From sequence record PZ721903.1: a stretch of DNA of 49,628 bases; one strand, written 5' to 3'. This document shows, in pieces, positions 3,495 to 49,577 of the stretch. This DNA comes from a phage. The notes under the pieces were generated by a model that was not told the DNA's origin, made no database searches, and was given only the letters and a program-made list of their open reading frames with translations. Within the stretch, counting starts at the first letter, position 1. Each line of letters begins with the position of its first letter. The position numbers were made by a program, and so were the translations under genes.

Positions 3495-4245
3495 TGGCGT
3501 TGCTACTCAGTGGCGCTATCCTGAAATGAGCGAGCGCGCAATGTCGCGCTCCCTACAGGATGTAGCAGCCAAACTAACTGAAAAAATGCGTGACGAATTA
3601 AAGCCTATGAAATTTGATGCTACCGACGAAGAGATAGATCAGGCAGAAAGGTCATTGCTTGATTACGTTGAATCGCTCATCTCGCCGATTATAGGTTCTC
3701 TATCATCCGTTGCGCTCACGATCTATAAATTCAACTCTAAGCAGTGGCTGCGCATCGCTCGCAATGCTGGAGGTAAGAAGAATCAAGCCGTGATGCTACT
3801 TGCCCTGATTGGTCCTACCGCTGACGAAAGCTGGTACTCAGGACAATATAATCTGTGGCGATCGCAGGTTACTACTTCTATCAGGAAATTTGCCGCCAAC
3901 ATGGTTACTGATTTCACTGATAAACTTCGTGCGGCATCCGGTCAGGGTAAAAGCAAGGATTTTGTTGTTGAACTTGCTAAGGAACGATTTGGTATTTACC
4001 GGAACTGGGCCAAAAATAGAGCGTCGGGAATTGTCGGAACATGGAACAGTAGACTGATGCGGCAGCGTGTAAAAGACGCTGGTGTATCTTACTATTTCTG
4101 GCGCGGGGTGATGGATTTACGCGAACGTGAAAAACATGTAAGATGGGAAGGTAAGCGCATAGCGGTAGATTCCGATCACGTATTCCCGGGTGAAGAATAC
4201 AACTGCCGTTGTTGGGCTGTTCCAGACTTTTCCACAGGAGATTAA
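3484..4245 (+). CDS. head morphogenesis protein (Mu F-like / SPP1 gp7-like)
   Basis: C-terminal YFWRGVMDLREREKH...NCRCW resembles the Mu F minor head protein domain; sits after the portal. Confidence 0.65.
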   Translation: MKINGVATQWRYPEMSERAMSRSLQDVAAKLTEKMRDELKPMKFDATDEEIDQAERSLLDYVESLISPIIGSLSSVALTIYKFNSKQWLRIARNAGGKKNQAVMLLALIGPTADESWYSGQYNLWRSQVTTSIRKFAANMVTDFTDKLRAASGQGKSKDFVVELAKERFGIYRNWAKNRASGIVGTWNSRLMRQRVKDAGVSYYFWRGVMDLREREKHVRWEGKRIAVDSDHVFPGEEYNCRCWAVPDFSTGD

Positions 4246-4247
4246 AA

Positions 4248-5360
4248 ATGAAGGCAAAGCAAAGATTCGATTCGGTAAAAATCAAGGCACACTTTGATGA
4301 TAATGGTTTTTTGGTTGATCGCCCCATCGTGGCGAGAATTGGTGCTCAGGTTTACAAGACTCCACACGGCGATCGCGTTGAGTTCCGTCCGGCGTCCGAA
4401 GTTTTCAAGCAAGATTCATTGCAAAGTTTTGCAGGCAAGCCGATTACAGTAGGTCACGTAACGGTAACTCCCCAAAATGCTAAGGATGTTGTTGTCGGAT
4501 CGTGTGCTGGCGCTGGTATTGCTTCAGGGGTTGGCGTTGAAGTTCCTTTGAGTATTTACAGCGACTACGCGATCAGCAAAGCTAAAGCGAAGGAGGCCGG
4601 GGAATTATCTGTAGGGTATACGTCGGTAGATATTGATAAGCCCGGCTGGGGTTCAAATGAGACTGGAGAATATATCTTCGAAGAGGATATGAAACAGGAC
4701 GAAGCGCCGCCTGAAGGTTGGGTGAAATTCGACGCGGTACAGACTAATATCAAGGTCAACCATATTGCCCTAGTTTTTAAAGGTCGTGCGGGAATTGCTA
4801 AATTAAATCTTGATGCCGAACAGGAGTTCCCGTATGATAATAACGTTCAATTAACTAACGAGGACAAGCAAATGAAAAAAATTAAGATCGACTCAGTTGA
4901 TGTGGAAGTAACCGAAGACGTTGCGAACCATATCGAAAAATTAACCGCTCAGATTGCCACCATTCAGGGGAAAGCTGATGGCTTCGAAGCTGAGCGCGAT
5001 GCGCTGAAGGTTAAGGTTGACTCTCTGCCGGAACTTGTGAAGGCCGAGGTAGAGAAGCAAAAAGCCGATGCCGCCGCACGCGCAGAAGTTACCGCAGTAG
5101 CAGAAACCGCAGGCGTCAAACATGATGGTCTTGATATCAAAGACGTCAAGATTGCCGTAGTTAAAGCCATGCTTGATAAAGATGTTAGTGAAAAATCTGA
5201 TGCATATATCGACGCTATGTTTGATGTTGCTAAAGATTCTGATATCATGGCTATTCAGCGTAAAGCAGTAAAAGGCGACTCTATCGAAGGCGGTAAGCCG
5301 GAAGAGAAAAACGACGCCGCGCCTGTTACGCCAAATTCACGTTTAAGCAAAGTAATGTAA
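4248..5360 (+). CDS. head scaffolding / prohead protease-like protein
   Basis: Start at ATG 4248 (RBS ggag); charged, Ala/Lys/Glu-rich coiled-coil-like C-terminal half typical of scaffolds; position between portal and capsid genes. Confidence 0.45.
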   Translation: MKAKQRFDSVKIKAHFDDNGFLVDRPIVARIGAQVYKTPHGDRVEFRPASEVFKQDSLQSFAGKPITVGHVTVTPQNAKDVVVGSCAGAGIASGVGVEVPLSIYSDYAISKAKAKEAGELSVGYTSVDIDKPGWGSNETGEYIFEEDMKQDEAPPEGWVKFDAVQTNIKVNHIALVFKGRAGIAKLNLDAEQEFPYDNNVQLTNEDKQMKKIKIDSVDVEVTEDVANHIEKLTAQIATIQGKADGFEAERDALKVKVDSLPELVKAEVEKQKADAAARAEVTAVAETAGVKHDGLDIKDVKIAVVKAMLDKDVSEKSDAYIDAMFDVAKDSDIMAIQRKAVKGDSIEGGKPEEKNDAAPVTPNSRLSKVM

Positions 5361-5371: not shown

Positions 5372-5848
5372 ATGGCACAAATTAATGCATCTTATCAGCG
5401 AGATATGGCGATTGCGCTTCCGGGTATGGTTGCGGATACTTCAAAGTACAATATTGACGGCGCTTGTGTCGTTAATGAAGGTGATGTTCTTGTTGGCGCT
5501 GCCGTACAAGTTGTTCAAGCTCAGGCGGTTGATGGTCATAAGTTGGTTAAGGCTCTTACTACCGGAACCACTCCTTACGGCGTGGCAATCCGATCTCACT
5601 GGCAGACTGTTAACGCTCAAAATCAGATGATTTACGAAGATGGCGGCGCTATCAACGTGATGACTTCAGGCCGAGTATGGATGCTTTCCAAATCCACCGA
5701 AGCACCAACTTTCGGCTCTGCCGTTAAACTTGATGTTGATGGTCAGGAAAAATCTGATGGCACGATCGAAACAACCTGGACCTACGCTGGCGGTTGGACT
5801 AAATACAAAGATATTCAGCTTGTTGAGGTTCAGTTGCATCAACTGTAA
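5372..5848 (+). CDS. capsid decoration-like protein, paralog A
   Basis: 158 aa; clearly paralogous to the next ORF (DTSKYNIDGACV...TPYG[VI]A[IF]RS...HGRVW); followed by a terminator. Confidence 0.45.
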   Translation: MAQINASYQRDMAIALPGMVADTSKYNIDGACVVNEGDVLVGAAVQVVQAQAVDGHKLVKALTTGTTPYGVAIRSHWQTVNAQNQMIYEDGGAINVMTSGRVWMLSKSTEAPTFGSAVKLDVDGQEKSDGTIETTWTYAGGWTKYKDIQLVEVQLHQL

Positions 5849-5863
5849 TTAGCGTTTAATATG

Positions 5864-5897
5864 GGGACTATCTTTTTTTTGGATAGTCCTTTTTTTA
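5864..5897 (+). terminator. intrinsic terminator/attenuator followed directly by RBS
   Basis: ggactatc / gatagtcc stem with T-rich loop, T7 run, then ATGGAGAAATCattATG. Confidence 0.6.
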
Positions 5898-6678: not shown

Positions 6679-6698
6679 CATAAAAACACTTTGACGCT

Positions 6699-6715
6699 TT
6701 AACAAAAAGTGCTAT
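6699..6715. promoter_or_regulatory. palindromic box copy (late region)
   Basis: ttaacaaaaagtgctat; lies between a TTGACG hexamer and attatt, upstream of hairpin 6722. Confidence 0.6.
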
Positions 6716-6721
6716 TATTGA

Positions 6722-6750
6722 AGCCGTGAACATAATCACGGCTTTTTTAT
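6722..6750 (+). terminator. hairpin + T-run upstream of the capsid gene
   Basis: agccgtga-acataa-tcacggct followed by tttttatt; sits just downstream of box copy 6699 and a TTGACG hexamer. Confidence 0.5.
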
Positions 6751-6769: not shown

Positions 6770-7729
6770 ATGACTACTAAAAAATTTGATGAAGCAGATA
6801 AAAGCAATGTTGAAATGTATCTGATCCAGGCTGGCGTAAAACAGGATGCAGCCGCAACGATGGGTATCTGGACCGCTCAGGAACTACACCGCATCAAGAG
6901 TCAGTCCTATGAAGAAGACTACCCGGTCGGCTCCGCTCTACGAGTATTCCCGGTTACAACCGAACTCTCTCCGACCGACAAGACGTTTGAGTACATGACC
7001 TTTGATAAGGTTGGTACTGCTCAGATTATCGCTGACTATACCGATGACCTGCCTCTGGTTGATGCACTTGGTACTTCTGAATTTGGTAAGGTGTTCCGTT
7101 TGGGTAACGCGTATCTGATCTCAATCGACGAAATCAAAGCAGGTCAGGCAACTGGTCGCCCACTGTCAACCCGTAAGGCGAGCGCGTGCCAGTTGGCGCA
7201 TGATCAGCTTGTTAACCGCCTGGTGTTCAAAGGTTCCGCACCGCACAAGATTGTGTCCGTGTTTAACCATCCGAACATCACTAAAATTACCTCCGGTAAG
7301 TGGATTGATGCATCTACTATGAAGCCGGAAACTGCGGAAGCTGAGCTAACTCAAGCGATCGAAACCATCGAGACGATTACTCGGGGTCAGCACCGCGCAA
7401 CCAACATCCTGATCCCGCCTTCCATGCGTAAGGTTTTGGCGATTCGTATGCCTGAGACAACCATGTCTTATCTGGACTATTTTAAGTCTCAGAACTCCGG
7501 TATCGAAATCGACTCTATCGCAGAGCTTGAGGATATTGACGGCGCAGGCACCAAAGGCGTACTGGTGTACGAAAAGAATCCGATGAACATGTCCATCGAG
7601 ATCCCGGAAGCATTTAATATGCTGCCAGCACAACCGAAAGACTTGCACTTTAAAGTGCCTTGCACTTCTAAGTGTACTGGTCTTACAATTTATCGCCCGA
7701 TGACTATTGTCTTAATCACTGGCGTGTAA
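6770..7729 (+). CDS. major capsid protein (putative)
   Basis: 319 aa ORF with strong RBS ggag in the expected position after scaffold/decoration genes; high-expression context (own promoter/attenuator upstream). Identity from position and size. Confidence 0.6.
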   Translation: MTTKKFDEADKSNVEMYLIQAGVKQDAAATMGIWTAQELHRIKSQSYEEDYPVGSALRVFPVTTELSPTDKTFEYMTFDKVGTAQIIADYTDDLPLVDALGTSEFGKVFRLGNAYLISIDEIKAGQATGRPLSTRKASACQLAHDQLVNRLVFKGSAPHKIVSVFNHPNITKITSGKWIDASTMKPETAEAELTQAIETIETITRGQHRATNILIPPSMRKVLAIRMPETTMSYLDYFKSQNSGIEIDSIAELEDIDGAGTKGVLVYEKNPMNMSIEIPEAFNMLPAQPKDLHFKVPCTSKCTGLTIYRPMTIVLITGV

Positions 7730-7736
7730 TATTATA

Positions 7737-7765
7737 GGGGCTAACTTAGTTAGTCCCTTTTTTAT
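7737..7765 (+). terminator. intrinsic terminator/attenuator followed directly by RBS
   Basis: ggggctaac-tta-gttagtccc stem, ttttttatt, then GGAGAAATCaaaATG. Confidence 0.6.
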
Positions 7766-8109: not shown

Positions 8110-8520
8110 ATGAATCAAGAAACTTTAATTGCAGCTGTTGAGCAAATGCGAAAGCTGGTTCCGGCACTTCGTAAGGTTCCAGACGAAACGCTTTATGCGT
8201 GGGTAGAAATGGCTGAGCTTTTTGTATGCCAGAAGACCTTTAAAGACGCATACGTCAAAGCGATCGCTCTTTATGCATTACACCTTGCTTTCCTTGATGG
8301 GGCGCTAAAAGGTGAAGATGAGGATCTGGAATCGTACTCACGCCGCGTTACGTCATTCTCACTGAGCGGTGAATTTAGCCAGACTTTCGGAGAGGTTACG
8401 AAGAACCAGTCAGGGAACATGATGCTTTCTACGCCGTGGGGTAAGATGTTCGAACAGCTTAAAGCGAGACGCCGTGGTAGATTCGCATTAATGACAGGAC
8501 TCCGTGGAGGATGCCACTAA
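8110..8520 (+). CDS. head-tail connector / adaptor (putative)
   Basis: Start at ATG 8110 behind ggggg RBS after terminator 8073-8097; position between capsid and tail genes. Confidence 0.45.
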   Translation: MNQETLIAAVEQMRKLVPALRKVPDETLYAWVEMAELFVCQKTFKDAYVKAIALYALHLAFLDGALKGEDEDLESYSRRVTSFSLSGEFSQTFGEVTKNQSGNMMLSTPWGKMFEQLKARRRGRFALMTGLRGGCH

Positions 8521-8891
8521 TGAACTACTCACAGATTGAAAGAATGGCTCGCAAAGGCGTGGCTTTCTTCACCGATCCGTCAAGACCTATGAACCTGATA
8601 AAACAAGGTGAATACGGATATGATGAAAACGGATTCGAGATCCCACCGATGGAACAGGTTATTCCAATATCCGGCGCGACGAGAAGACCGAACGCGCGTG
8701 AGATTGACGGGGAAACTATCCGCGCCTCAGATATTTTGGGGATCTTCAATAATGATCATGAAATAAACGAAGGTGACTATATAGAGATTGATGGCATTCG
8801 TCATGTTGTCGTTGATGCTCGCCCGGTTCAGGCGTCACTGGAACCAGTTGCCTATCGTCCAGTGTTGCGGAGGGTATCAGTCGGTGGCTAA
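8520..8891 (+). CDS. head closure / neck protein (putative)
   Basis: Start at ATG 8520 (RBS ggagg at 8506-8510); gene order. Confidence 0.4.
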   Translation: MNYSQIERMARKGVAFFTDPSRPMNLIKQGEYGYDENGFEIPPMEQVIPISGATRRPNAREIDGETIRASDILGIFNNDHEINEGDYIEIDGIRHVVVDARPVQASLEPVAYRPVLRRVSVGG

Positions 8892-10396: not shown

Positions 10397-10432
10397 AGGG
10401 GGCTTGCGCCCCCTTGTTCATTTCTGTAAAAT
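10397..10432 (+). terminator. hairpin (gggggc/gccccc) followed by TGTAAAAT -10-like box
   Basis: GC hairpin after the major tail gene, weak T-run, then ctgtaaaat; box copy 10461 and RBS follow. Confidence 0.45.
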
Positions 10433-10460
10433 CATCCTATCAACTTTATTCGATTAACTT

Positions 10461-10477
10461 TTAACAAAAAGTGCTAT
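10461..10477. promoter_or_regulatory. palindromic box copy directly upstream of the chaperone RBS
   Basis: ttaacaaaaagtgctat followed by caaCCAATCAGGAGaaacatcATG. Confidence 0.6.
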
Positions 10478-11133: not shown

Positions 11134-11156
11134 GCCGCCGTTTGGCGGTTTTTTCG
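11134..11156 (+). terminator. hairpin + T-run after the G-T ORF
   Basis: ccgccgtttggcgg followed by tttttt, immediately before the tape-measure RBS. Confidence 0.55.
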
Positions 11157-11171
11157 TATATAGGGGGTTAT

Positions 11172-14045
11172 ATGGTTGATAAGGTAGCAGGTCTGTCGCT
11201 TGACGTTGATGTGTCAACAGTGCAGCGCGCCGTCAAGTCACTGAAAGAGTTTTCAAAGGCCAACGACCAGGCCGCTGATTCTATGGGTTCTTTAATCAAT
11301 GAGTCAGAGGTTGCAAAACAGAAGGCCAAAGAACACGCTGAACAACTAAGGCGCCAGAGAAAAGAGTATGAGGCCGTGGAGAAGGCAATCGATCCTACAG
11401 TATCAAAAATGGAAAGGTTGAAGATTGCATCTCAGCAGCTTGATAAACTCTGGCAGCAGGGAGTCGTTCCAGATGAGACGTTTTTCCGTTTGGGTGAAAT
11501 GCTGGATCTGCAAAACGCAAAACTTGCTCGCAGCCGGGCTATGCTTACGGAAGAAGGTCAGGCGGCATTGCAGGAAGCGAAAGCAAAAGAGCAGGCGGCA
11601 GCACGAAGCAAGGCGTTCATGGATGCCCTGAATGGTCAAGTTAACGCGATCGGCAAGACTCATGCTGAATTGATGGAACTGAAAGCGGCTGAGCTTGGTT
11701 TATCGAAAGAAGCAGCACCACTAATCGCAAAACTTAAAGATCAAGGCCGGGCTATGAATGCAGCAGGTATTAGCGCCGGGGAATACAGGCAGGCAATGCG
11801 AATGCTTCCTGCACAGATTACCGACGTCGTTACATCTCTTGCATCCGGCATGCCAGTTTGGATGGTTGCCATCCAGCAAGGCGGTCAAATCAAGGACTCG
11901 TTCGGCGGGATCAGTAATACGTTTAAAGTGTTGCTGAGTTATATTAATCCAGTCACAGCAGGGGTTGGCGTTCTCGTTGGCTCGTTAGGTCTTCTGGCGA
12001 AAGCTGGTTATGACTCTTACAAGTCAATAACTGATATTCAGAATGCGCTTATTGAGACTGGCGGTTATGCAGGTGTTACGGCTGAAGAGCTTGATTCAGT
12101 GTCTAAAAAGATCGCACAGACAAGCAACTCAACCATTGGGAGTATTCGCGATATTGTAACGGAGTTGGCGAGTTCTGGTAAGTACACCCGCGAGCAGATC
12201 CAGAACATCACTAAGGCTACCGCAGAGTGGTCAGCGTCAACAGGAAAATCAGCAAGCCAAATTATTTCTGAGTTCGACAAAATCGCAAGCGATCCGGTAA
12301 AAGGCCTGAAGAAGTTAAACGAGCAATATAATTTCCTTGAAAAAGGGCAACTTACCTATATCGATACATTAAGCCGGACGAAAGGAGAAACTGAGGCAGT
12401 ATCAGAGGCTACCAAACTATTCGCAGACGTAATGGAAAAGCGAATGAAGTCGATCGCGGATAACGCTACTCCTCTGGAAAAGATGTGGAGCGATATTAAA
12501 CAATGGGCTTCGGACGCGTGGGGATGGGTTGGTGATCATACACTCGGGGCGCTAAACCTGATTGTCGACGTTGTTCAGGGTACAGTGATTCAGGTTAAAA
12601 TGATTCTTGCGAAGGGTGATGAGTACATCTCAAACTTTATCGCCTCAGCCATAAAGGCAACTCAGTCACTACCTGGAATGAGTGATTTCGGCGCTGATGT
12701 GCTGAAGGAGCAGGAGAACATCGTAAAAAGTTCTCGCGACAACTACGACCAGTTGGCTTCAGAGCTTGATGCTATTAACGCTCGCGTAGAAAAAGGCGAG
12801 ATGGGATACGTTGAAGCGATGAAGCAGCGTCGAACTCTTGAAAAGCAGTACAGTGAGGAAACTAGGGAGGCAATAAGGAAAGAAGCAGAAGAGATCGAGA
12901 AGCGAAACCGAGAAAGAAATAAGCAGTCGAAAATTGTACGCTCACCGACAGAGCAATTCGACAAGGAGTTAATTTCACTCAAGGCTCAACTTAAGGTATT
13001 GCAGGAGCATAAGGAGATCGGTCAAAAACTTTCCGCGCAGAGAAAGGCGCTGTTTACTACCGAGGCTACGATTGCTGTTCTTCGTGAAGCCAGCTCTAAG
13101 CGTCAGTTGTCTGCGGAAGAAAAAGCGTTGCTGGCAAGTCAGGAGAGAGTTATTGAGCTTGCGAAACAGAAGGCCGAGATTGGCGATCAGATTGTTAAGC
13201 AACAACAGTTGAATGATCTTACCGATAAATCTCTGAAGTTTGTCAATGAGATGACGGCAGCTACAGAACAGCTAAACGCGTCTCGAGGGATGAGCACCCG
13301 AGAAATGGAAAGGCAAGCTGAGTTGGCTAAGATCACTACTGATTATATTAATGCAGGTGGCAGCGAAGGAGATGAAAAACTCCAGAACATGATCAAGGCA
13401 CAAAATGATTACTATGCTGCGGAAGATGCCAAGCGTTCTGACTGGTTAGCAGGTGCTGAAAGTGCATTTGCAGATTACGGCGATTCTGCAATGGATATGT
13501 ACGGCAATGTGTATGATATCGCGTCAAGTTCACTTAACGGAATGAGTGACATGATGACCCAATTCCTGACTACAGGTAAGGCAAATTTTGAGGACTTTGC
13601 GAAAAACATCATTAGCATGATTATTAAGATGATTGCTCAAATGGTAATCTTCAATACGATCTCAGGCATGATGGGCGGTAAGACGTGGAGCTTTGCTGGA
13701 GGGGTGTCGCCTGGTGCTTCTGCGGTATCACAGGCAACTCCTACGCCTGCCGTCTCTGGTTTTAGGTCTTTATCTTCAGGCGTCGCTGTTACCTCGCTTG
13801 CTGCCGCTGCGGGTAGTGTTGCAACATCTGGATTTAACGCATCTAAATCCGCACCGAAGGCAGTGAACCAATCAGCAGGCGGGACGGTCGTTGATGTTAG
13901 GGGTATGGAGGTTAAAGTTGACAACGGTTCAGATCCGAGAGGAATTTCTCAGGGCGTAGAAATGATGTTCAAAAAAATGATTCGAGAGTCTTGTTCACAG
14001 GGCGGAGAGGTTTACAATTACATTCAGGAAAAAACAGGAGGCTAA
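11172..14045 (+). CDS. tail tape measure protein
   Basis: 957 aa, long alpha-helical/coiled-coil region, Gly/Ser-rich C-terminus; start at ATG 11172 behind RBS ggggg. Confidence 0.85.
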
Positions 14046-14047
14046 TA

Positions 14048-14401
14048 ATGGCGACACTTGACACTTTCAGTTGGTGTACGCAGGTTCAAGGGGGCGGCGG
14101 CTCCCTTACCACTACCAACAATGACAGATCCATACAGTTTGGAAACGGCCACATGCAGCTTGCATCTTCTGGATTTAACACCACGCGACGCGAGTATTCA
14201 GTTGTCTATGCTGGGGAAGATTTCATGGCTGTTTACGACTTCTGTGATTCTCACCGCATTAAACCTTTCGCATGGACGCCGCCGGACGGGAAGATCGGAA
14301 TATGGGTTGTTAAGCCTAACAGCCTGGGCGCGAAGCCAGTATCACGCGACGTGATGGAAATTAATGTCACGTTTATGGAGCAGTTTACATCTATGGAATA
14401 G
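14048..14401 (+). CDS. minor tail protein (lambda M-like)
   Basis: Start ATG 14048 (RBS aggagg); N-terminal MATLDTFSW and size resemble lambda gpM; position after the tape measure. Confidence 0.65.
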   Translation: MATLDTFSWCTQVQGGGGSLTTTNNDRSIQFGNGHMQLASSGFNTTRREYSVVYAGEDFMAVYDFCDSHRIKPFAWTPPDGKIGIWVVKPNSLGAKPVSRDVMEINVTFMEQFTSME

Positions 14402-14416
14402 CACTTCATGACAAAA

Positions 14417-14452
14417 GCCCGCCTTGCGCGGGTTTTTTTGTAGCTGTAGAAT
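14417..14452 (+). terminator. terminator gcccgccttgcgcggg+T7 followed by TGTAGAAT box (copy 1 of duplicated module)
   Basis: Hairpin and T-run are identical to 16597-16619; followed by ctgtagaat. Confidence 0.65.
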
Positions 14453-14480
14453 GGTTGCAACTAAACAAGAGGAAAAGACA

Positions 14481-15263
14481 ATGAGCGAAAACAAAAAACT
14501 TTATGATGAAGAAAGCGGGAAGAGCCTGTTTCACAACTGCCTTCAATCACTATACCCTGGAGAGATAATCACTCTGATTGAAGTTGATGGCAGCAAGTTC
14601 GGCGCTCAGGTGTACCGTTTCCACGGGGAAAATATCCAGTACACTCCAGAAGAAATCATGCAGGCACAGCAAACCGGAACGCTACCGCCGAAAGAAATCA
14701 CCTTCCGTGGCGAGCAATACGGCGCGCGACCTTTCGGTATATCCGGGATCTCGTTCGACAGTTCCGGCAAGGCCACAAAGCCACAATTAACGGTGGCAAA
14801 CATCGATAGTCGCGTATCTGCGATGATTCGTGCATATAACGGACTAATGCAAGCTAAGGTGACTATCTGGATCACTCAAAAGGACTTAATTCAACATAAC
14901 GGCTCAATCGCTGACGGAGCTTACCGAAAACTGGTATACTATATCGAACGCCCGAGCTATGTCGATAAGAGTGTCGCCAGGTTCGATCTAACGTCTCCTT
15001 ATGATATGGATGGAATCATGATACCGTCACGACTAACTCAAAGCGTTTGCTATTGGGCGCAGAGGGGATGGTATAAAACCGGGAAGGGGTGCGGATACAA
15101 CGGGCAAAATGGTTACTTCGATAAAGACAATAATCCGGTAGACGATCCTTCGCTGGATTTTTGCCCGGGAACGGTAACGGCCTGCCGCCTGAGATTCGGC
15201 GCAAACAATGAATTGGATTTTGGCGGTTGCGCAGTCGCTTCACTACAGAGGAAAAATCAATGA
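14481..15263 (+). CDS. minor tail protein (lambda L-like) with C-terminal Cys cluster
   Basis: Start ATG 14481 (RBS aagagga); C-terminal cysteines (CYW...GCGYNG...FCPG...ACRL...GGCAV) as in the gpL Fe-S region. Confidence 0.7.
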   Translation: MSENKKLYDEESGKSLFHNCLQSLYPGEIITLIEVDGSKFGAQVYRFHGENIQYTPEEIMQAQQTGTLPPKEITFRGEQYGARPFGISGISFDSSGKATKPQLTVANIDSRVSAMIRAYNGLMQAKVTIWITQKDLIQHNGSIADGAYRKLVYYIERPSYVDKSVARFDLTSPYDMDGIMIPSRLTQSVCYWAQRGWYKTGKGCGYNGQNGYFDKDNNPVDDPSLDFCPGTVTACRLRFGANNELDFGGCAVASLQRKNQ

Positions 15264-15994
15264 TTAGTGCAAAAATTAAACTTGAAATTATGACTCACGC
15301 TCAAGAAGAATATCCTCGCGAATGCTGTGGGGTAGTCACCCAAAAGGGCCGCGTACAAAAATACCATCGCGTTGATAATGTACACCGCGATCCCGAGAAT
15401 CATTTCATGATGGATGCTGTACAATACGCTTGCATTGAGGACGATGCGGAATCAACAACAATAGCAATTGTTCACAGCCACACAGGAGACGGGGCTACAA
15501 CTCTACCAAGCGCTCACGATACGTGCATGTGCAACGAGATGGAAGTTACCTGGATTATTGTTAGCGTGCCGGAAGGGGATATGCGATTTGTGAAGCCGGA
15601 GAAATTGCCTCTGATTGGTCGTCCGTGGTCATTAGGATCATTCGACTGTTACGGTCTTGTTATGGCGTGGCACAAAGAGCACGGCGTAGAATTGCGCGAT
15701 CGCCGATTGAATTTTGAATGGTGGAAACCTGAGTACGGAATTAATCTCTATCAGGATTATTACAAGCAGGATGGCTTCGTTGAGATTCCAGATCAGAATA
15801 ATCCGTCATTCGGTGATATGGTAATCATGCAGATAGGGCAAAACGTTCCGGTATGGAACCATGCAGGGATTTACCTGGGAGATAATCAGATCTTGCATCA
15901 TGCCTTCGGCAAGCTATCTCGTCGTGATATTTATTCCGGATGGTATCAGGATCATACTGTTTTAATCGTTCGCCATAAGGATCTTAAATTATGA
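15260..15994 (+). CDS. tail tip protein (lambda K-like; JAB/MPN + NlpC/P60)
   Basis: ECCGVV...HSHTGDG JAMM-like motif and FDCYGLV...H NlpC/P60-like Cys/His; start ATG 15260. Confidence 0.75.
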   Translation: MISAKIKLEIMTHAQEEYPRECCGVVTQKGRVQKYHRVDNVHRDPENHFMMDAVQYACIEDDAESTTIAIVHSHTGDGATTLPSAHDTCMCNEMEVTWIIVSVPEGDMRFVKPEKLPLIGRPWSLGSFDCYGLVMAWHKEHGVELRDRRLNFEWWKPEYGINLYQDYYKQDGFVEIPDQNNPSFGDMVIMQIGQNVPVWNHAGIYLGDNQILHHAFGKLSRRDIYSGWYQDHTVLIVRHKDLKL

Positions 15995-16590
15995 ATGATG
16001 TAAAAGTAATTAAATTGTCAGGTTCACTTGGGAGACGCTTCGGCGTCTTTCACCGTTACGCTGTTGACTCTTACCCGGAAGCCATACGGGCGCTATCCAG
16101 TCAGGTGGACGGATTTAAAGAATACATGCAAAGCGAGGTAGGATCTCGTAGCAAGTTTTCAATATTTGTGGATGGCGTTAACGTGGGACACCATGAAGAG
16201 GAAAAATTCAAGTGCGCGAAAGAGATAAGAATCGTACCGATCCCTACTGGCTCTAAGACAGGAGGTCTATTTCAGGTTGTATTGGGCGCGGCAATAATGG
16301 TTGCAGCATTCTATACTGGCGGCGCGTCTCTGGCTTTAATGGGCACAATGTCCTCTTCTCTGTTTATGATGGGCGGCGCTATGGTGTTGGGTGGAGTGAT
16401 GCAGATGATTTCACCGCAGCCGGGAGGCGCAAACTTTGAAGTTCAATCAAGCAAGAATAAACCTTCTTACGCGTTCGGCGGTGCTGTCAATACGACGGCG
16501 GCTGGATACCCTCTCCCGGTCCCGTATGGATATCGCGCCGGAGGTGGCGCAACTTTCTCAGCAGGTTCTTATGCCGAGGATATGAGTTAA
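15991..16590 (+). CDS. tail assembly protein (lambda I-like)
   Basis: 199 aa, Gly/Ala/Met-rich hydrophobic C-terminal half; position between K-like and J-like genes. Confidence 0.65.
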   Translation: MNDVKVIKLSGSLGRRFGVFHRYAVDSYPEAIRALSSQVDGFKEYMQSEVGSRSKFSIFVDGVNVGHHEEEKFKCAKEIRIVPIPTGSKTGGLFQVVLGAAIMVAAFYTGGASLALMGTMSSSLFMMGGAMVLGGVMQMISPQPGGANFEVQSSKNKPSYAFGGAVNTTAAGYPLPVPYGYRAGGGATFSAGSYAEDMS

Positions 16591-16596
16591 AATTAA

Positions 16597-16630
16597 CCCG
16601 CCTTGCGCGGGTTTTTTTTCGCCTGTATAA
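16597..16630 (+). terminator. terminator cccgccttgcgcggg+T8 followed by TGTATAAT box (copy 2)
   Basis: Same hairpin as 14417; followed by cctgtataat upstream of the J-like gene. Confidence 0.65.
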
Positions 16631-16667
16631 TGAGTCCACCGATAAATAGCACAAAAAGGTAAACATC

Positions 16668-19600
16668 ATGATTCAAAAAGTGATAAGTGGATCTAAAGGC
16701 GGCTCGCCTAAGCCTCATAATCCAGTTGAGATGGAAGACAATCTAATCTCAATCAACAAAATCAAGATCCTGTTAGCTGTATCTGATGGTGAAATTGACG
16801 AAACATTCAGCCTGAAGCAGTTGATGTTTAACTCAGTCCCGGTGCAAAACGAGGATGGATCGTTCAACTTCGAAGGGGTAAAGGCTGAGTTCAGGCCGGG
16901 AACTCAGACGCAGGAATACATCAAGGGCATGGAGGATAGTTCCAGCGAGGTAACTGTAAATCGTGAGGTTACTACCGATAACCCATACACGATCTCAGTG
17001 ACCAATAAAACACTATCGGCAATACGCATCAAAATGTTCATGCCTCGCGGCGTACGAATTGAAAGTAACGGTGATAAAAATGGCGTAAGAGTTGAGTATG
17101 AGGTGCAACAAGCTGTTGATGGCGGTTCGTTTGAGACTGTTCTTACTGACGTAATTGAAGGCAAAACAATGTCAGGTTACGACAGAAGTCGACGTGTAAA
17201 CCTGCCTAGCTTTAACAACCAGGTAATATTCAGAGTTGTTCGAAAGACTCCAGACTCTAACGACTCTAACGTTGTTGATGCGATCCAGGTAAAGAGCTAT
17301 GCCGAGGTGATTGATGCCAAATTCCGTTACCCTCTGACAGGTCTTCTTTTCGTCGAGTTCGACTCGAAGATGTTCCCAAACCAGTTACCTACGATCTCAA
17401 TTCGTAAGCGCTGGAAGATTGTAAGCGTTCCGTCGAACTACGACCCAGAATCGCGAACATACAACGGCAATTGGGATGGCACTTTCAAAAAAGCATGGAC
17501 GAACAATCCGGCGTGGGTTCTTTATGACCTGATGATTAATCAGCGTTACGGCTTGGATCAGAAAGAGCTTGGTATCGCTGTCGATAAATGGGCGCTCTAC
17601 GAGGCTGCGCAATATTGCGATCAGATGGTTCCTGATGGGAAGGGCGGGACGGAACCTCGATACCTTTGCGACGTGATAATCCAGTCTCAGACTGACGCTT
17701 ACAAGGTTATTCGAGATATTTGCTCAATCTTTCGAGGTATGAGCTTTTGGAATGGCGAAAGCATTTCGGTAATCATCGATAGGCCGCGTGAGCCTGCGTA
17801 CATCTTCACTAACGACAACGTGGTTAATGGTGACTTCTCCTACACGTTTGCAAGCGAAAAGAGCATGTACACGACGTGTAATGTGATGTTTGACGACGAG
17901 CAAAACATGTATCAGCAGGACGTTGAGCCAGTATTCGATCGTGAGGCTACTCTACGGTTCGGGAACAACGTAACGAGCATTACAGCGATCGGCTGCACAC
18001 GTCGAAGCGAGGCCAACCGACGCGGGAGATGGATTCTGAAAACTAACCTCCGCAGCACTACGGTAAACTTCGCTACCGGACTTGAGGGTATGATTCCGAC
18101 AATCGGAGATGTTGTGGCAATAGCTGATAACTTCTGGTCAAGTAACTTGACGATGAACCTATCAGGGCGCTTGCTCGAAGTATCCGGTAGTCAGATTTTC
18201 TTGCCGCTCCGGGTGGATGCACGCGCGGGTGACTTTATTATCGTAAATAAGCCAGATGGCAAGCCCGTGAAGCGCACAATATCAAGTGTTAGTGCGGATG
18301 GTAAGACTATAGAGGTTAACATTGGCTTTGGCTTTCCTGTGAAGCCTAACACGGTATTCGCTATCGACCGCACCGACATTGCGTTACAGCAGTACGTCGT
18401 GACAAAAATCGATAAGGGCGATGATGATGAGGAATTTACCTACAAAATAACGGCGGTGGAGTACGATCCTAACAAGTACGATGAGATTGATTACGGAGTT
18501 AATATCGACGACCGACCGACGAGCATCGTTGAACCAGATCAGATCCCTAGACCGGAAAACGTGCAAGTGTCCTCAGAGTCACGAATCGTCCAGGGGATGA
18601 GCGTAGAAACGATGATTGTTAGCTGGGATAAAGTGCCGTACGCAGTTTTCTATGACGTCCAGTGGCGAAAGGATAACGGCAACTGGCAAAATGTACCGCA
18701 GACAGCAAACAAAGAGGTATACGTTGAAGGTATTTACGCTGGCAACTATCAGGTTCGCGTTCGCTCCGTAGCTGGTTCCGGTACGACTTCAGGATGGTCA
18801 AATGTCGTAGCTGCGACGCTGACGGGCAAACAAGGTGAGCCGGGTGGACCGATTAACCTTACAGCTACGGATGATGTTGTTTTTGGTATCCGTACAAAAT
18901 GGGGGTTCTCTGATGGTTCTGGAGATACGGCCTATACAGAGTTGCAACAGTCACCAGATGGAACAGTGGATAACGCAAGTTTGCTTTCTTTGATTCCGTA
19001 CCCGCAGCATGAGTATTATCACTCACCGATGCCTGGAGGGAATATTGTTTGGTATCGTGTAAGGACGGTTGATAGGATCGGTAACGTGTCTCAGTGGACT
19101 GATTTTGTCAGAGGTATGGCATCAACAAACGTTGACGATATCATTGGGGAGATTTCTGTCGATATCGAAAACTCGCCGGGTTACGAGTGGCTTGTTGATA
19201 ACGCAACCGACAACGCGGCGCAGAACGCAGCTAACGCAGAGGCAGCAATAGAAAACGCGCTCGCCAATGACAAAGACGCGATCTACATGAAGAAGGAGAA
19301 CGGAAAACGAAAAGCTGAGTACACGAAATCACTGAAACTTATTGCTGATGAGACGCAGGCGCGAGTGACGGCGATCGAGCAATTGAAGGCAAGTTTTGGC
19401 GATCAGATTAGCGCTAGCAACAGCGAATTGCGTGAAGTTATCGCAACTGAGACTGGAGCGCTATCGCGTGAAATTGACCAACTCAGGGCAGAGATTGGTG
19501 ATGATATCCAGGCAAGTTTGACCGATATCAGAGAGGCTATAGCAAACGAGACTGAGGCGAGAACGCAAGCTGACTTGTCGTTAAGCGCGAGGCTTGGGAA

Positions 19601-20087
19601 TAATGAGGCAGCACTTTCTCAAAAACTTGATTCGTGGAGCAATGCAGATTCGACTGGTGCAATGTACGGCGTCAAGCTCGGTCTGAAGTATAACGGCCAA
19701 GAATACAGTGCAGGCATGGCTATGTCTCTGATTGGTTCCGGAGCTGCGGTTAAGGCGCAGATTTTGTTTGAGGCATCACGATTTGCCATCATGAATGGAA
19801 TGAATGGTCAGACTCAGTACCCATTCGTTGTTGAGAATGGCCAGGTTATTTTAAGTAGCGCGATTATCAAGAACGGATTCATCACGAATGCGATGATTGG
19901 TAATGTTATTCAATCGAATAACTATGTCGTTAACAAGGCTGGCTGGATACTTGACAAGGGTGGAACATTAGAAAACTACGGAAGTGACGCTGAGGGTGCA
20001 ATGAAGCAAACTAATACCACAATATCTGTTAGGGATGCGAGTGGTCGCCTGAGGGTTCAGATTGGCAGGTTGACTGGTTCATGGTAA
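16668..20087 (+). CDS. central tail fibre / host specificity protein (lambda J-like)
   Basis: 1139 aa; largest tail gene after the I-like gene; FN3-like repeats in the middle, coiled region near the C-terminus. Confidence 0.85.
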   Translation: MIQKVISGSKGGSPKPHNPVEMEDNLISINKIKILLAVSDGEIDETFSLKQLMFNSVPVQNEDGSFNFEGVKAEFRPGTQTQEYIKGMEDSSSEVTVNREVTTDNPYTISVTNKTLSAIRIKMFMPRGVRIESNGDKNGVRVEYEVQQAVDGGSFETVLTDVIEGKTMSGYDRSRRVNLPSFNNQVIFRVVRKTPDSNDSNVVDAIQVKSYAEVIDAKFRYPLTGLLFVEFDSKMFPNQLPTISIRKRWKIVSVPSNYDPESRTYNGNWDGTFKKAWTNNPAWVLYDLMINQRYGLDQKELGIAVDKWALYEAAQYCDQMVPDGKGGTEPRYLCDVIIQSQTDAYKVIRDICSIFRGMSFWNGESISVIIDRPREPAYIFTNDNVVNGDFSYTFASEKSMYTTCNVMFDDEQNMYQQDVEPVFDREATLRFGNNVTSITAIGCTRRSEANRRGRWILKTNLRSTTVNFATGLEGMIPTIGDVVAIADNFWSSNLTMNLSGRLLEVSGSQIFLPLRVDARAGDFIIVNKPDGKPVKRTISSVSADGKTIEVNIGFGFPVKPNTVFAIDRTDIALQQYVVTKIDKGDDDEEFTYKITAVEYDPNKYDEIDYGVNIDDRPTSIVEPDQIPRPENVQVSSESRIVQGMSVETMIVSWDKVPYAVFYDVQWRKDNGNWQNVPQTANKEVYVEGIYAGNYQVRVRSVAGSGTTSGWSNVVAATLTGKQGEPGGPINLTATDDVVFGIRTKWGFSDGSGDTAYTELQQSPDGTVDNASLLSLIPYPQHEYYHSPMPGGNIVWYRVRTVDRIGNVSQWTDFVRGMASTNVDDIIGEISVDIENSPGYEWLVDNATDNAAQNAANAEAAIENALANDKDAIYMKKENGKRKAEYTKSLKLIADETQARVTAIEQLKASFGDQISASNSELREVIATETGALSREIDQLRAEIGDDIQASLTDIREAIANETEARTQADLSLSARLGNNEAALSQKLDSWSNADSTGAMYGVKLGLKYNGQEYSAGMAMSLIGSGAAVKAQILFEASRFAIMNGMNGQTQYPFVVENGQVILSSAIIKNGFITNAMIGNVIQSNNYVVNKAGWILDKGGTLENYGSDAEGAMKQTNTTISVRDASGRLRVQIGRLTGSW

Positions 20088-20092
20088 TATCA

Positions 20093-20119
20093 AGGGCATC
20101 GAGAGATGCTCTTTTCTTT
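20093..20119 (+). terminator. terminator/attenuator followed by RBS
   Basis: gggcatc-gaga-gatgctc stem, ttttctttt, then GGAGGatttattATG. Confidence 0.55.
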
Positions 20120-21904: not shown

Positions 21905-22969
21905 ATGTTCCAGGTGTTCACATCAAGTCAGCTTTCTAATGACGAGTATCATAGCAACGAAGGTTGGGCGGCAGAGTATGTAAGCGGTTCTAGCCTTGCA
22001 GAAATTTATCAGACTTGCCCGGCTAACTGGAGATTCAAGAAGAATGAGACAACGAAGGCGCTGGAGTTTGGTACTCAGTCGCATACCAACTTTGAGAGCC
22101 GAGATCTGTTTACTGCAACGTATGCACGTTGTCCGGCTCCGTCAGAGTTCAAGGATCTGATTACGTCACAAGCCGCACTGGCTGCAAAATTAAAATCTTT
22201 CGGCCTGAAAGGTACATCCGGTAAGCAGTACCCGGACCTCATCAAGATGATGGTTGATTGCGGTGAAGAGCTAAACGTCCAATATCTGATCGAGTTGATT
22301 GCGGAAGCAGAGGCGCGCTCTGAAGGAAAGAAATTGGTTGACGCTGACAAATACGACGCTTGCATGAAGATGAGAGCAATCCTTGAACAAAATCCTGATC
22401 ACGAAGCGTGCATCAACAGTGAAACGGCGCAGCGTGAGATTTCAATCTTCGGTGAGATATCCGGCGTCAAGGTTAAGGTTCGACTTGACCATCTGGACTA
22501 CAAAGAGAATGTTCCAGGTCGTGTCCTGACTGGTTATGATGAGAATGGAGATCCGGTATTCGAAGATGTTATTTTCCCTGAAGCACTGATTATCACTGAC
22601 TTCAAAACAACAATGAGCGCCAACCCGTTAGAGTTCCCGAGACTGGCATACAATCACGGGTATTATCTGAAAATGGCCTTGCAGCATGATCTGCTACGAC
22701 GCGCAATCCAGGCTGGCGCTTTTGAAGGCAACTTCCCGGAAGATATCCCGATCGTAGTTCGATTGCTGGCTCAGGAGAAAAAAGAGCCTTACATCGCACT
22801 TGCTTACCGTATGACTATGGAGCAAATCAGGATCGGTCGTAGCCAGTATGTTAGCGTAGTCCACACTTACAAGGCTTGCTCTGAAATGGATGTTTGGCCT
22901 GGGTACGCTGGCGACGCAAGCGAGATTGAACTTGAAACGCCATCATGGGTGCGTTACCAAAATAAGTAA
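21905..22969 (+). CDS. PD-(D/E)xK family recombination exonuclease (putative)
   Basis: 354 aa; IITDFKTT-type D...E.K nuclease motif; located upstream of Erf and SSB. Confidence 0.5.
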   Translation: MFQVFTSSQLSNDEYHSNEGWAAEYVSGSSLAEIYQTCPANWRFKKNETTKALEFGTQSHTNFESRDLFTATYARCPAPSEFKDLITSQAALAAKLKSFGLKGTSGKQYPDLIKMMVDCGEELNVQYLIELIAEAEARSEGKKLVDADKYDACMKMRAILEQNPDHEACINSETAQREISIFGEISGVKVKVRLDHLDYKENVPGRVLTGYDENGDPVFEDVIFPEALIITDFKTTMSANPLEFPRLAYNHGYYLKMALQHDLLRRAIQAGAFEGNFPEDIPIVVRLLAQEKKEPYIALAYRMTMEQIRIGRSQYVSVVHTYKACSEMDVWPGYAGDASEIELETPSWVRYQNK

Positions 22970-24180: not shown

Positions 24181-25685
24181 CATTTGGACTTCAACATTTT
24201 TATCTCTTCTTGTAACTCTTCAACTTTCTTTATTGTATCCTGTAAAGCTCTCATAGTGTCAAGCAATAAAGGAGTTGTATCAAGCTCAAGCCTTTCAACT
24301 TTTGGCCCGTTTAGCTCGTGGCTCTCATACACCCTTCTCTTAACATATAGATTGTCGATCTCTTCTATCTCCTGAGCTATAACACCTCTCCTTACCCTTT
24401 CTTGCTCATCATCGTTAAATATAAAGTTCCTAAATCTCATTGATTTTATGTTGTTGTATGCAATGCTTGATTCATCATCCTTTATGCCGTGCTTTATATT
24501 TCTGTCAGATGCCGGAACCTGTTGGAAACTTCCAGCCCCTTGCGGTCCAGCGTAAGATATTTGCCCTGAAGCCATAAACCTGAAATGCATTTGCAGACCA
24601 ATATTGCCTGCTCCATCCCTATCTTGAGTGCCTACTGATATTTGTGCCCTGGGCCATTCAGGATTACCCGTAGTCATCATGCCAAATGCTACGCCGCCAA
24701 CGTATCCCTGACCTCTGGTGTCACACGATCCAGCAATAAGTGATTGATAGTTTTCAGCACCACTATCAGCGGTGTAAGCATTACCCTGGAAGCATGAAGC
24801 AGACCACATCTGGTTGTAACCCATAGATGTTTTCTGGCATAAAAACTGATTAGCTCTGAATCTATTGTTAGTCTCGAAGTAGTTTGCCCCCTCATAAAAT
24901 AATAAAGCCCCAGCATAACCATTATCGCTACGTTCTTTTCTGACGTAAATACCTGGCGTAGATATTCCATCAGGTGACATAATCATCAATGATGACAATA
25001 TGGACTGACTACCCCAGCTAGAACCGTCCCATGAATTCCTTCCTGCACCTATAGCGCCAGTGGTGTTAATAGCAAGAAAGTTAACAGCATCATTTTCACC
25101 TAACCCAATATTTTTTCTTGACTCTTTTTTATCCTCAAGACCAGCTAAATTGCCATCCTTAGTTAAAAGATTTTCAGCATTGATGCTGTTAGCTGCGTCT
25201 TTTGCTTCTTGAGCACTTACCGCAGCCGCATCTTTTGAGCTTACCGCATCGTCACGCGCTAATTCAGCCTGATTTTGCGCAGCTTGAGAATCAGATTTCG
25301 CCTGATTCACATCAGCAACTATTTGCTCAAGTTTATTCATATCAAGCTGATTTATCAGGTCTATAGCTGCCGCAATCTCAGTCTCTTTGCTTTGATAGTA
25401 TCGAAGAGTCTCGGCGACGTTTTGAGCTAATCCGTTAACGGTTAGAGAGTCATTAAGTAGGATCACATACTTACCGTCATCGGCAGTCTGACCATCAGTA
25501 GAGATAGCCTTTAATTCTGTATCACTAACGATATCGCTAATCACAGCTAGCTTAATTGGTTGCTCAAGGAACACGATAGTTGCACCTACGCGAATAAGAG
25601 CAAGCTGGTCTTTCCATTTTGTATCGGTTCCGTGAACCGTTCCGTCTGCATCCATTGATGCAGTACCGCGTCGATATAAAGCCAT
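24180..25685 (-). CDS. tail fibre with C-terminal intramolecular chaperone (peptidase S74-like)
   Basis: 501 aa; C-terminal region with SDRNIKHGIKD...RFRNFIF...coiled-coil tail typical of self-cleaving tail-fibre chaperone domains; RBS aaggag. Confidence 0.7.
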   Translation of the reverse strand: MALYRRGTASMDADGTVHGTDTKWKDQLALIRVGATIVFLEQPIKLAVISDIVSDTELKAISTDGQTADDGKYVILLNDSLTVNGLAQNVAETLRYYQSKETEIAAAIDLINQLDMNKLEQIVADVNQAKSDSQAAQNQAELARDDAVSSKDAAAVSAQEAKDAANSINAENLLTKDGNLAGLEDKKESRKNIGLGENDAVNFLAINTTGAIGAGRNSWDGSSWGSQSILSSLMIMSPDGISTPGIYVRKERSDNGYAGALLFYEGANYFETNNRFRANQFLCQKTSMGYNQMWSASCFQGNAYTADSGAENYQSLIAGSCDTRGQGYVGGVAFGMMTTGNPEWPRAQISVGTQDRDGAGNIGLQMHFRFMASGQISYAGPQGAGSFQQVPASDRNIKHGIKDDESSIAYNNIKSMRFRNFIFNDDEQERVRRGVIAQEIEEIDNLYVKRRVYESHELNGPKVERLELDTTPLLLDTMRALQDTIKKVEELQEEIKMLKSK

Positions 25686-26778: not shown

Positions 26779-26797
26779 TGTTTTAACTAAAAATGCT
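26779..26797. promoter_or_regulatory. palindromic box copy (variant)
   Basis: ttttaactaaaaatgctat overlapping the 3' end of the HTH gene (- strand). Confidence 0.5.
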
Positions 26798-27235
26798 ATT
26801 GGTCGTCCCGATATCTTCCTTCTTCACGACGCGCATAAATTTCTTGTTCTTGCATCGCTTCTCAAGGCACTTGCCGTTACCGTCAAACTTCAGGTCGAAT
26901 CGCAACCATGCGGCACGAAATCCTTTACACCCCTGTCGTCGGTAAGCACGATGCGCAGCTTCAGCACCTTGCCACGAAATCATGTTGCGTTCTTTCCAGC
27001 CTTGCACCGTCTGATTGCTAACCTTTAGAGCTTTTGCGCAGGCCGCAGGGCCACCATAATATTCGATAAGCGCATCAAGTCGCGCTCGCAATCCGGCGCG
27101 TGTTTCTTCTTTATGAATATAGAAGCCGCAGCGCTGTCGAGGCTTTTTATCTTTACCGCGTCGTGTTCCGTTGTTACCATTGATGTGACGTTTATCGATT
27201 TCACCAGTTGACTCTGCGATACGTTGAATACTCAT
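26783..27235 (-). CDS. HTH DNA-binding protein (Cro/YdaS-like, putative regulator)
   Basis: Helix-turn-helix-like segment GGPAACAKALKVSNQTVQGWKER and basic N-terminus; divergent from the helicase gene; stop codon lies inside a palindromic box copy. Confidence 0.45.
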   Translation of the reverse strand: MSIQRIAESTGEIDKRHINGNNGTRRGKDKKPRQRCGFYIHKEETRAGLRARLDALIEYYGGPAACAKALKVSNQTVQGWKERNMISWQGAEAAHRAYRRQGCKGFRAAWLRFDLKFDGNGKCLEKRCKNKKFMRVVKKEDIGTTNSIFS

Positions 27236-34531: not shown

Positions 34532-34550
34532 TTTTAACAAAAAGTGCTAT
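34532..34550 (-). promoter_or_regulatory. palindromic box copy, leftward cassette
   Basis: ttttaacaaaaagtgctat on +; on the - strand followed by a hairpin, tatatt and CATCGAAACGAAACGA. Confidence 0.6.
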
Positions 34551-38772: not shown

Positions 38773-38830
38773 GATTATTTCCTCGTTTGCTGCTGATGGG
38801 ATGACTATACCAGCCATCCCGGATGCGCGT

Positions 38831-38847
38831 TTAGCAAAAAGTGCTAT
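38831..38847 (-). promoter_or_regulatory. palindromic box copy, leftward cassette
   Basis: ttagcaaaaagtgctat; on the - strand followed by a hairpin around TGgTATAGT and RBS gagga. Confidence 0.6.
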
Positions 38848-41445: not shown

Positions 41446-41502
41446 CCCGGTCGAGCGGATCGGGTATTATCTTCTCATTGACACGATACAGAGGAATCGA
41501 AG

Positions 41503-41699: not shown

Positions 41700-42170
41700 A
41701 TGGCGACAATTACCGTATTTCTTGCTAAAGATGAGCTTGATGGCGAAATGTCATTCTTCGCGTTTGAGCATAAAACCGGCTCGCACTGGCACACTTACAG
41801 CCATTACACGGTTATCTCAATCGAAGCGTACGACGGCGAACTGCTCACTGATAAACTGAGTAATTTCATTGAAGCCGTTAAAGCTAGCGGCGGCTGCGAG
41901 TGGAAGGAAGATCACGAAGTTATGCGAATGTTTGAGATGGTCAATCCGGTTCGCCTTGAGTCGTTCGAGCTTGATGCTAATGTGACTATCAAGGTGAGAA
42001 AGTCGGGTGAGTTATTGCCAGGGATGCGTGTACTGACTGGTTACTCTGGCCGTAAGGTGTGGCGCACTGTATCCAAGATTCGCCAGCGCTCGGCAACATG
42101 CTATAGCGTATTCTTTGATGATGGTTGGAATATGATGTCCGGTAGTGAGGTAAAGTATCTCACCAAATAG
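41700..42170 (+). CDS. hypothetical protein
   Basis: 156 aa; stop TAG lies in box copy 42167. Confidence 0.5.
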   Translation: MATITVFLAKDELDGEMSFFAFEHKTGSHWHTYSHYTVISIEAYDGELLTDKLSNFIEAVKASGGCEWKEDHEVMRMFEMVNPVRLESFELDANVTIKVRKSGELLPGMRVLTGYSGRKVWRTVSKIRQRSATCYSVFFDDGWNMMSGSEVKYLTK

Positions 42171-49568: not shown

Positions 49569-49577
49569 TAAACACTA

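Follow-up and report, generated by a model that had tools for sequence, protein, structure and literature searches.

In phage lambda, the late operon is transcribed by host RNA polymerase from one promoter, pR', with Q antitermination carrying transcription through all terminators. T1-like phages are frequent contaminants, and they are also candidates for use in phage therapy. To our knowledge their transcription programme has never been mapped, and our literature searches for mapped transcript 5' or 3' ends in T1-like infection, including by Term-seq or RNA-seq, gave nothing relevant. The late region of T1 itself has been described in terms of 'transcriptons', which are flanked by terminators and carry RpoD promoters (Roberts, Martin and Kropinski 2004, as cited in PMC11447400). 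The authors of a 2024 study of phage TLS could not confirm transcriptons with stricter promoter criteria, under which they called three sigma-70 promoters only, none of them at the sites considered here; their Table S1 lists orthologous terminators between M and L (T46) and between I and J (T49), with a direct repeat, DR8, between T49 and J (PMC11447400). The T1 records (NC_005833 and AY216660) annotate all three hairpins that concern us as rho-independent terminators (22793-22816, 24972-24994 and 8322-8344), among about 22 terminators and no promoters in the RefSeq and GenBank versions. A 21-nt direct repeat, aaATAGCACnnnTTGnTAAAA, occurs in TLS, T1, Rtp and Rogue1, with a function stated to be unknown (PMC11447400), and our literature search for the motif returned that paper only.

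We analysed a stretch of phage DNA of 49,628 nt (PZ721903.1; hereafter the window), and report the sequences, fold, conservation and geometry of two near-identical units in its tail region. As the end of the window is contiguous with its start in relatives, the window is a whole T1-like genome (Tunavirus) in circularly permuted form; over positions 13900-17000 it matches Escherichia phages phiD2-2 and FCWL1 at 100% identity and phage T1 at 94%. The true start of the small terminase gene is the ATG at position 25, matching the T1 annotation. PHROG searches returned a lambda/N15-type order of tail genes, beginning with the tape measure gene (11142-14045) and continuing on the + strand with an M-like minor tail (tail tip) gene (14048-14401; phrog_14 minor tail protein, T1 ST37, lambda M-like), an L-like minor tail gene (14481-15263; phrog_18, T1 ST36), a K-like tail tip gene (15260-15994; phrog_30, T1 ST35), an I-like tail assembly gene (15991-16590; phrog_32, T1 ST34) and a J-like central tail fibre gene (16668-20087; phrog_31, T1 ST33).

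Both units are intergenic and lie on the + strand, in the orientation of the genes, the first 16 nt past the M stop codon and the second 6 nt past that of I. The hairpin of unit 1 (14415-14439) comprises an A-tract, the stem CCCGC (14418-14422), the loop CTTGC, the stem GCGGG (14428-14432) and a run of seven T (14433-14439), and that of unit 2 (16595-16619) has the same stem (16597-16601 and 16607-16611) and loop, followed by eight T (16612-16619). As RNA they fold at -14.1 kcal/mol (z -3.2 against shuffled sequence) and -13.6 kcal/mol (z -3.0), respectively, and the hairpins taken together range from -12.7 to -14.7 kcal/mol (z -3 to -4). The stems pair through 5 GC pairs and a further 2-4 A-U pairs, the U-run directly follows the stem on its 3' side, and both hairpins were called by a terminator scan. 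An Rfam scan of the whole window gave no match at gathering score to any RNA family. Judged by their letters, the hairpins of units 1 and 2 have every property of intrinsic terminators, and we treat them as putative members of that class.

Their retention among relatives is consistent with this. Three sets of related loci were drawn from IMG/VR, covering the neighbourhoods of the I gene (72 loci), the major tail gene (53) and the capsid gene (63); individual loci carry L numbers below. A hairpin with a T-run occupies the I/J spacer in 61 of 62 loci (22 distinct hairpins), the M/L spacer in 57 of 60 (14 distinct) and the spacer after the major tail gene in 49 of 49 (20 distinct), counts which overstate the number of independent observations, because the relatives (about 60) share ancestry and are not phylogenetically independent. 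The same stem positions carry CG, GC or AT in different relatives, compensatory changes which preserve the stem; stems were tabulated by our own script, as a MAFFT alignment of the I/J spacers shifts some hairpins by one base.

A preliminary description of this locus had reported a 22-nt sequence that is present twice, and an exact-match search bears this out, placing CCCGCCTTGCGCGGGTTTTTTT at 14418-14439 and 16597-16618 and nowhere else in the window. Allowing up to 3 mismatches yielded no third copy elsewhere in the window, and 100 dinucleotide-preserving shuffles contained no match, with 0 expected by chance. The 22-mer sits inside a 36-nt in-register repeat (14418-14453 and 16597-16632; 86% identity) which takes in CTGTA(G/T)AATG, the two copies reading CTGTAGAATG and CTGTATAATG. 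The pair had also been said to bracket M, L, K and I; the M-like gene in fact lies upstream of the first hairpin, and as the first copy falls between M and L, the pair encloses L-K-I and leaves M outside.

The two hairpins are identical to each other only in Tunavirus and its nearest relatives (L019 and L020). Elsewhere they differ, the M/L hairpin of other genera being typically GCCGC-CTTTGT-GCGGC and the I/J hairpin CCCGC-CTTGC-GCGGG, and family-wide concerted evolution of the two hairpins was rejected on account of this restricted identity. Units 1 and 2 appear instead to be near-identical because the M/L unit of Tunavirus seems to derive, by copying, from one of the I/J type. The linker GTAGCTG, which L057 has at I/J, is that of the Tunavirus M/L unit, and in TLS an identical 22-mer precedes the terminase gene (as its terminator T28); we infer from this pair of matches, which suggest as much, that a unit can be copied or moved between sites.

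Each hairpin is followed by a promoter-like box. These had been placed within 10 nt of the duplicated sequence, as they are: TAGAAT (14447-14452) begins 7 nt and TATAAT (16626-16631) 6 nt after the respective T-run. In both units the loop and descending stem, read as DNA, form the -35-like sequence TTGCGC (14424-14429 and 16603-16608), 17 bp upstream of the box. The predicted starts lie near 14459, which would give a 5' UTR of about 22 nt to the L ATG, and near 16638. TTGCGC matches the -35 consensus TTGACA at the TTG only (3/6). An extended -10 element had been implied as well; the TG of units 1 and 2 sits immediately before the hexamer (-14/-13), and the canonical TGn at -15/-14 is found only in the third of the three units then noted. 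Phage SA32RD has an annotated promoter ahead of terminator 1; this was also considered and set aside, as it is not conserved in the window, where its -10 position reads CATGAC.

An approximate weight matrix of sigma-70 consensus frequencies ranks unit 2 11th, unit 1 21st and a fourth unit described below 27th among about 496,000 windows of this genome, but their scores are matched by many sites that are probably meaningless, such that a single genome cannot separate the units from chance and the matrix is not used as evidence. The case for the boxes rests on their conservation in relatives. The spacer between the loop TTG and the box is exactly 17 bp in 34 of 39 unique I/J sequences and in 22 of 31 unique M/L sequences, and it holds even though the T-run varies from 5 to 9 nt and the linker from 5 to 10, the two lengths compensating for one another. 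When 21 representative I/J spacers are aligned, the box keeps its T, A, A and T unchanged beside 4-6 preceding nucleotides that vary, the T, A and final T being invariant across genera; TAGAAT, TATAAT or TACAAT is present in 30 of 34 unique M/L sequences. Three lineages (L021, L022 and L030) keep the M/L terminator and have no -10 box, which suggests that restart is dispensable in them, and the same three also lack TTG in the loop. The hairpin before the terminase gene has a TTCG (UUCG-type) loop, so TTG is evidently not needed for hairpin stability. On this comparative record, the downstream boxes appear to behave like real -10 elements.

The same record bears on the possibility that the hairpins are terminators only, reducing the dose of tail-tip proteins by attenuation, and that TAnnnT is non-functional, AT-rich spacer. 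The terminator features are strong and retained in relatives; elsewhere in the late region of the window, about seven further terminators are directly followed by a ribosome-binding site and no downstream box; the weight-matrix scores are unexceptional; three M/L lineages keep the terminator with no box; and the TLS authors called no promoters here (PMC11447400). A mere spacer, however, would hardly keep TA..AT invariant beside a varying linker, hold 17 bp to the loop TTG through compensating changes in length, or lose its box together with the TTG of the loop, and we regard this account as unlikely.

Taken together, the persistent hairpins, the persistent TAnnnT and the 17-bp spacing to TTG lead us to conclude that each unit is probably a rho-independent terminator which overlaps a sigma-70-type promoter on shared DNA. 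RNA polymerase coming in from the late genes upstream would transcribe the GC-rich stem-loop and 7-8 U, whereupon a fraction of complexes would terminate. The loop and descending stem would serve in DNA form as the -35-like element TTGCGC; the remaining stem, the T-run and the short variable linker would make up the 17-bp spacer, and TAGAAT or TATAAT the -10. Host RNA polymerase could then restart about 7 nt past the box, to produce one message for L-K-I and another for J, whose levels would be freed from sole dependence on read-through from the strongly expressed genes upstream. Units 1 and 2 belong to a chain of about a dozen late-region terminators of the T1 type, several of which carry a putative promoter. 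That transcription actually terminates and initiates at these points, and with what efficiencies, we infer from sequence. The preliminary description had proposed terminate-and-restart modules, and the units probably do work in that manner: the hairpins are conserved and annotated as terminators, the boxes are conserved at 17 bp, and the arrangement matches the published transcripton view. What falls away is the enclosure of M and the canonical TG, and some M/L lineages have no box. A further point against the composite reading is that an unregulated sigma-70 promoter ahead of late genes leaves late timing unexplained.

A third unit had been noted before the terminase gene, and here the earlier claim stands in its parts and less so in its organisation. 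The hairpin CCCGCTTCGGCGGG (49577-49599, + strand; -12.7 kcal/mol, z -4.1) has a TTCG loop followed by seven T and corresponds to the T1 terminator at 8322-8344; TGgTAAAAT (49612-49620) follows; and the terminase comes next, since in relatives the two ends of the window are contiguous. The unit is nevertheless organised differently from the other two, with two candidate -10 boxes within 49607-49620 on the + strand, of which CAATAT (49607-49612), 17 bp from the loop, holds the homologous geometry. The other, TGgTAAAAT, shares nucleotides with the 5' flank of a copy of the direct repeat spanning the window junction (49619-49628 and 1-9; AAATAGCACTAA continued by ATGTTAAAC), and ATGnTAAAAT is kept in L141 and L142.

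A fourth unit, of the same design as units 1 and 2, follows the major tail gene (10397-10432, + strand). It consists of a hairpin (10397-10414), TTGCGC (10404-10409), a 17-bp spacer and TAAAAT (10427-10432), and the spacer between loop TTG and box is 17 bp in 29 of 34 unique sequences from this site. Back to back with the putative forward promoter there is a perfect antisense copy of the direct repeat (10459-10477) with its own extended -10, an arrangement which is kept across genera. A second design is also discernible in the late region, in which a -10-like hexamer directly adjoins the hairpin on its 5' side and is preceded by TTGnnn at a distance of 16-17 bp. Hairpins of this kind lie at 5863, 6720, 7736 and 20092 in the window, examples of the promoter-like sequences being TTGACG-16-TATTAT at 6691, TTGTCT-17-TATTAT at 7707 and TTGGCA-17-TAATAT at 20062 (5th, 16th and 9th by the same weight matrix, respectively), and the design is kept across genera around the capsid gene.

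The 19-nt direct repeat ATAGCACnnnTTGnTAAAA is present in 26 copies in the window, where 2.2 were expected, and across the window, T1 and TLS, a -10-like hexamer lies exactly 19 nt downstream in 47 of 58 copies, with TG at -15/-14 in 26 of the 58. Sites combining repeat and hexamer look like about 20 early and middle promoters; many of these have an extended -10, and the repeat would fall at about -50 to -32. Sigma-54 was considered for the repeat, as TAGCAC...TTGC resembles TGGCAC-N5-TTGC, and was rejected because its spacing falls 2 nt short and because a sigma-70 -10 lies at a constant distance downstream; membership of the T4 MotA boxes was likewise rejected, the box being about 8 bp too far upstream. 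Degenerate copies of the 21-nt repeat of TLS, T1, Rtp and Rogue1 flank units 1-3, each as a separate element outside the terminator hairpin. The copy at 14398-14416 has 2 mismatches to ATAGCACnnnTTGnTAAAA and is not conserved in T1. That at 16646-16664 on the + strand (ATAGCACAAAAAGGTAAAC; 3 mismatches) lies in the predicted J 5' UTR, where it overlaps the Shine-Dalgarno sequence; it is kept across genera and corresponds to DR8 in TLS. The third is the copy that spans the window junction.

The composite units may also be one component of a wider and hitherto undescribed regulatory grammar in the Drexlerviridae, a proposal that we put forward tentatively and with considerable doubt. This grammar would comprise promoter-bearing terminators, with the -35 in the loop, as at M/L, I/J and the site following the major tail gene, or with the -10 abutting the 5' arm, such that a new transcript would begin within the hairpin and thereby evade it (5863, 6720, 7736 and 20092); the 19-nt repeat upstream of about 20 early and middle promoters; and the same repeat overlapping or following late promoters, including the antisense repeat-promoter after the major tail gene. 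If so, one repeat-binding factor could switch early to late expression in a phage that has neither RNA polymerase nor sigma factor of its own.

Another account, in which the promoters of the units are not simple constitutive sigma-70 promoters but depend on a phage-controlled factor, a regulator that binds the 19-nt repeat to time late transcription, seems to us improbable. The abundance of the repeat in the window and the fixed 19-nt distance to a -10 box in three genomes favour it, as does the position of the repeat, which overlaps or follows the late core promoters before the terminase, before the capsid gene, after the major tail gene and at I/J. A candidate regulator may also be named, as the 150-aa protein encoded at 26783-27235, designated a transcriptional regulator in the T1 annotation, has a weak Cro-like helix-turn-helix match. 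This match is below the Pfam cut-off, and Pfam scans of the small early proteins gave nothing else; a repeat-binding protein is hypothetical, the M/L and I/J copies of the repeat carry 2-3 mismatches, and the first of them lacks a conserved counterpart in T1.

The notion that the units are mainly recombination or module-boundary sequences, used for cassette exchange or insertion and not for transcription, could draw on the mosaicism and insertions seen at these spacers: a divergent J (67%) beside I (98%) with the hairpin destroyed in L011, an HNH_3 endonuclease gene inserted between I and J in L027 and L029, an HNH-like ORF inserted after terminator 1 in L026, and a 167-bp deletion that begins at the hairpin in L017. 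It is very improbable, since deletion between 22-bp direct repeats would be favoured and, with essential genes in between, lethal. Identity of the two copies is moreover confined to the Tunavirus clade, whereas the design of hairpin plus box extends through the family in differing sequences, and the compensatory stem changes point to selection on RNA structure.

If the composite units work as we propose, a phage that relies solely on host polymerase could set different doses of abundant products (capsid and tail tube) and rare ones (tail tip and J) from one co-oriented array, and the units themselves would offer compact, portable insulator parts. The gain from the present finding is modest, as the terminators were already annotated and the 'transcripton' idea was published in 2004, as far as its citation in PMC11447400 conveys.

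Indeed, set beside the described systems, the feature is essentially known: the hairpins are already annotated and the modular idea has already been hypothesised for T1-like phages. The terminators of T1 (22793-22816, 24972-24994 and 8322-8344) and of TLS (T46, T49 and T28) occupy the orthologous sites, between M and L, between I and J and before the small terminase gene, respectively, and their sequences are identical or nearly so. Those records annotate terminators only and mark neither the -10 boxes nor the loop TTG nor the exact duplication; the comparative support and the geometry that places the -35 in the loop are what is added here, and nothing else is new. In the terms of the T1 transcripton, and in silico, L-K-I lies between the terminators at 14415 and 16595 with TTGCGC-17-TAGAAT in front, and J between those at 16595 and 20092 with TTGCGC-17-TATAAT in front. 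Lambda shares with this genome the order of its tail genes (tape measure, M, L, K, I, J) and the use of host RNA polymerase; whereas its late operon is read from one promoter, the T1-type late region is broken by about a dozen intrinsic terminators, several of which have promoter-like sequences adjacent to them.

A 19-nt direct repeat, ATAGCACnnnTTGnTAAAA, occurs at 26 sites in the window, among them 47789-47807, 46122-46140 and 42167-42185 on the plus strand, and 38829-38847 and 34532-34550 on the minus strand. The TLS paper gives its function as unknown (PMC11447400). Of 58 copies counted over three genomes (the window, T1 and TLS), 47 have a -10 box, often TGnTATAGT, exactly 19 nt past the repeat. 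They resemble early and middle promoters, some 20 in all; many have an extended -10, and the repeat would occupy -50 to -32. A 150-aa protein encoded at 26783-27235 on the minus strand is labelled a transcriptional regulator in T1; its match to a Cro-like helix-turn-helix is sub-threshold only (E 4e-5; 23.6 bits, cut-off 30.2), and we regard it as a candidate binder of the repeat.

Many of these repeat-type promoters contain an inverted repeat that has the -10 box in its loop (42186-42215, 43206-43235 and 44493-44520, and on the minus strand 38828-38800 and 37712-37685); its arms vary between copies while remaining complementary (GGGGTA/TACCCC, GGGATG/CATCCC, AAGGCCA/TGGCCTT, GTGAGTA/TACTCAC), and a conserved ATCGAAACGA comes after it. 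At others, including window 41446-41470 and TLS T62, the 19-nt spacer is taken up by a GC hairpin, with the -10 box directly after the hairpin in the manner of a U-tract.

The stretch 1-24 of the window opens with part of another copy of the repeat, which crosses the window junction (49619-49628 plus 1-9), and the ATG at position 1 falls within that copy. That ATG was rejected as the terminase start; the actual start is at position 25, preceded by AAAGAGGA, as in the T1 annotation. The spacer separating the major tail gene from the chaperone gene carries, in region 10427-10477, a perfect minus-strand copy at 10459-10477, and 19 nt past it TGaTAGGAT (10434-10439) stands back to back with a forward TAAAAT box (10427-10432), an arrangement kept across genera. 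As the predicted divergent starts are only some 12 bp apart, the forward and minus-strand promoters would exclude each other.

A second terminator-promoter geometry, in which TTGnnn and 16-17 bp precede a TA(T/A)TAT that touches a terminator hairpin at its 5' arm, was seen at window 6691-6745, 7707-7758, 5834-5891 and 20062-20113. A transcript from such a promoter would begin within the hairpin and escape the terminator. The geometry is conserved near the capsid gene (63 loci), upstream of which the direct repeat, in reverse complement, makes up the promoter spacer and also provides the TGc.

The M/L and I/J spacers are insertion hot spots. In related loci L027 and L029, an HNH_3 homing-type endonuclease gene (4112-4615, minus strand) lies antisense between I and J in place of the usual terminator, and in L026 an HNH-like ORF (1537-2046, plus strand) is inserted between L and terminator 1, the M/L hairpin. 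A 167-bp deletion in locus L017 (about 2075-2111) begins exactly where that hairpin ends, and takes out the T-run, -10 box, ribosome-binding site and first 40 L codons; in the I/J hairpin of L011, beside a divergent J gene, 10 nt are replaced (CTTGCGCGGG to TCCGCATTCA). These two changes may be real variants or assembly errors.

In L071 and L072, from a distant phage with an I protein 43% identical, TTTTTTTATGGGCGCAATATGGTAAAC lies past the I/J hairpin, and the 13-mer GCAATATGGTAAA is common to this spacer and to window 49593-49618, within the pre-terminase unit, which may reflect chance or a mobile unit. In TLS, terminator T28 (8723-8744), upstream of the small terminase gene, reads CCCGCCTTGCGCGGGTTTTTTT, the same 22-mer as in the window's M/L and I/J units.
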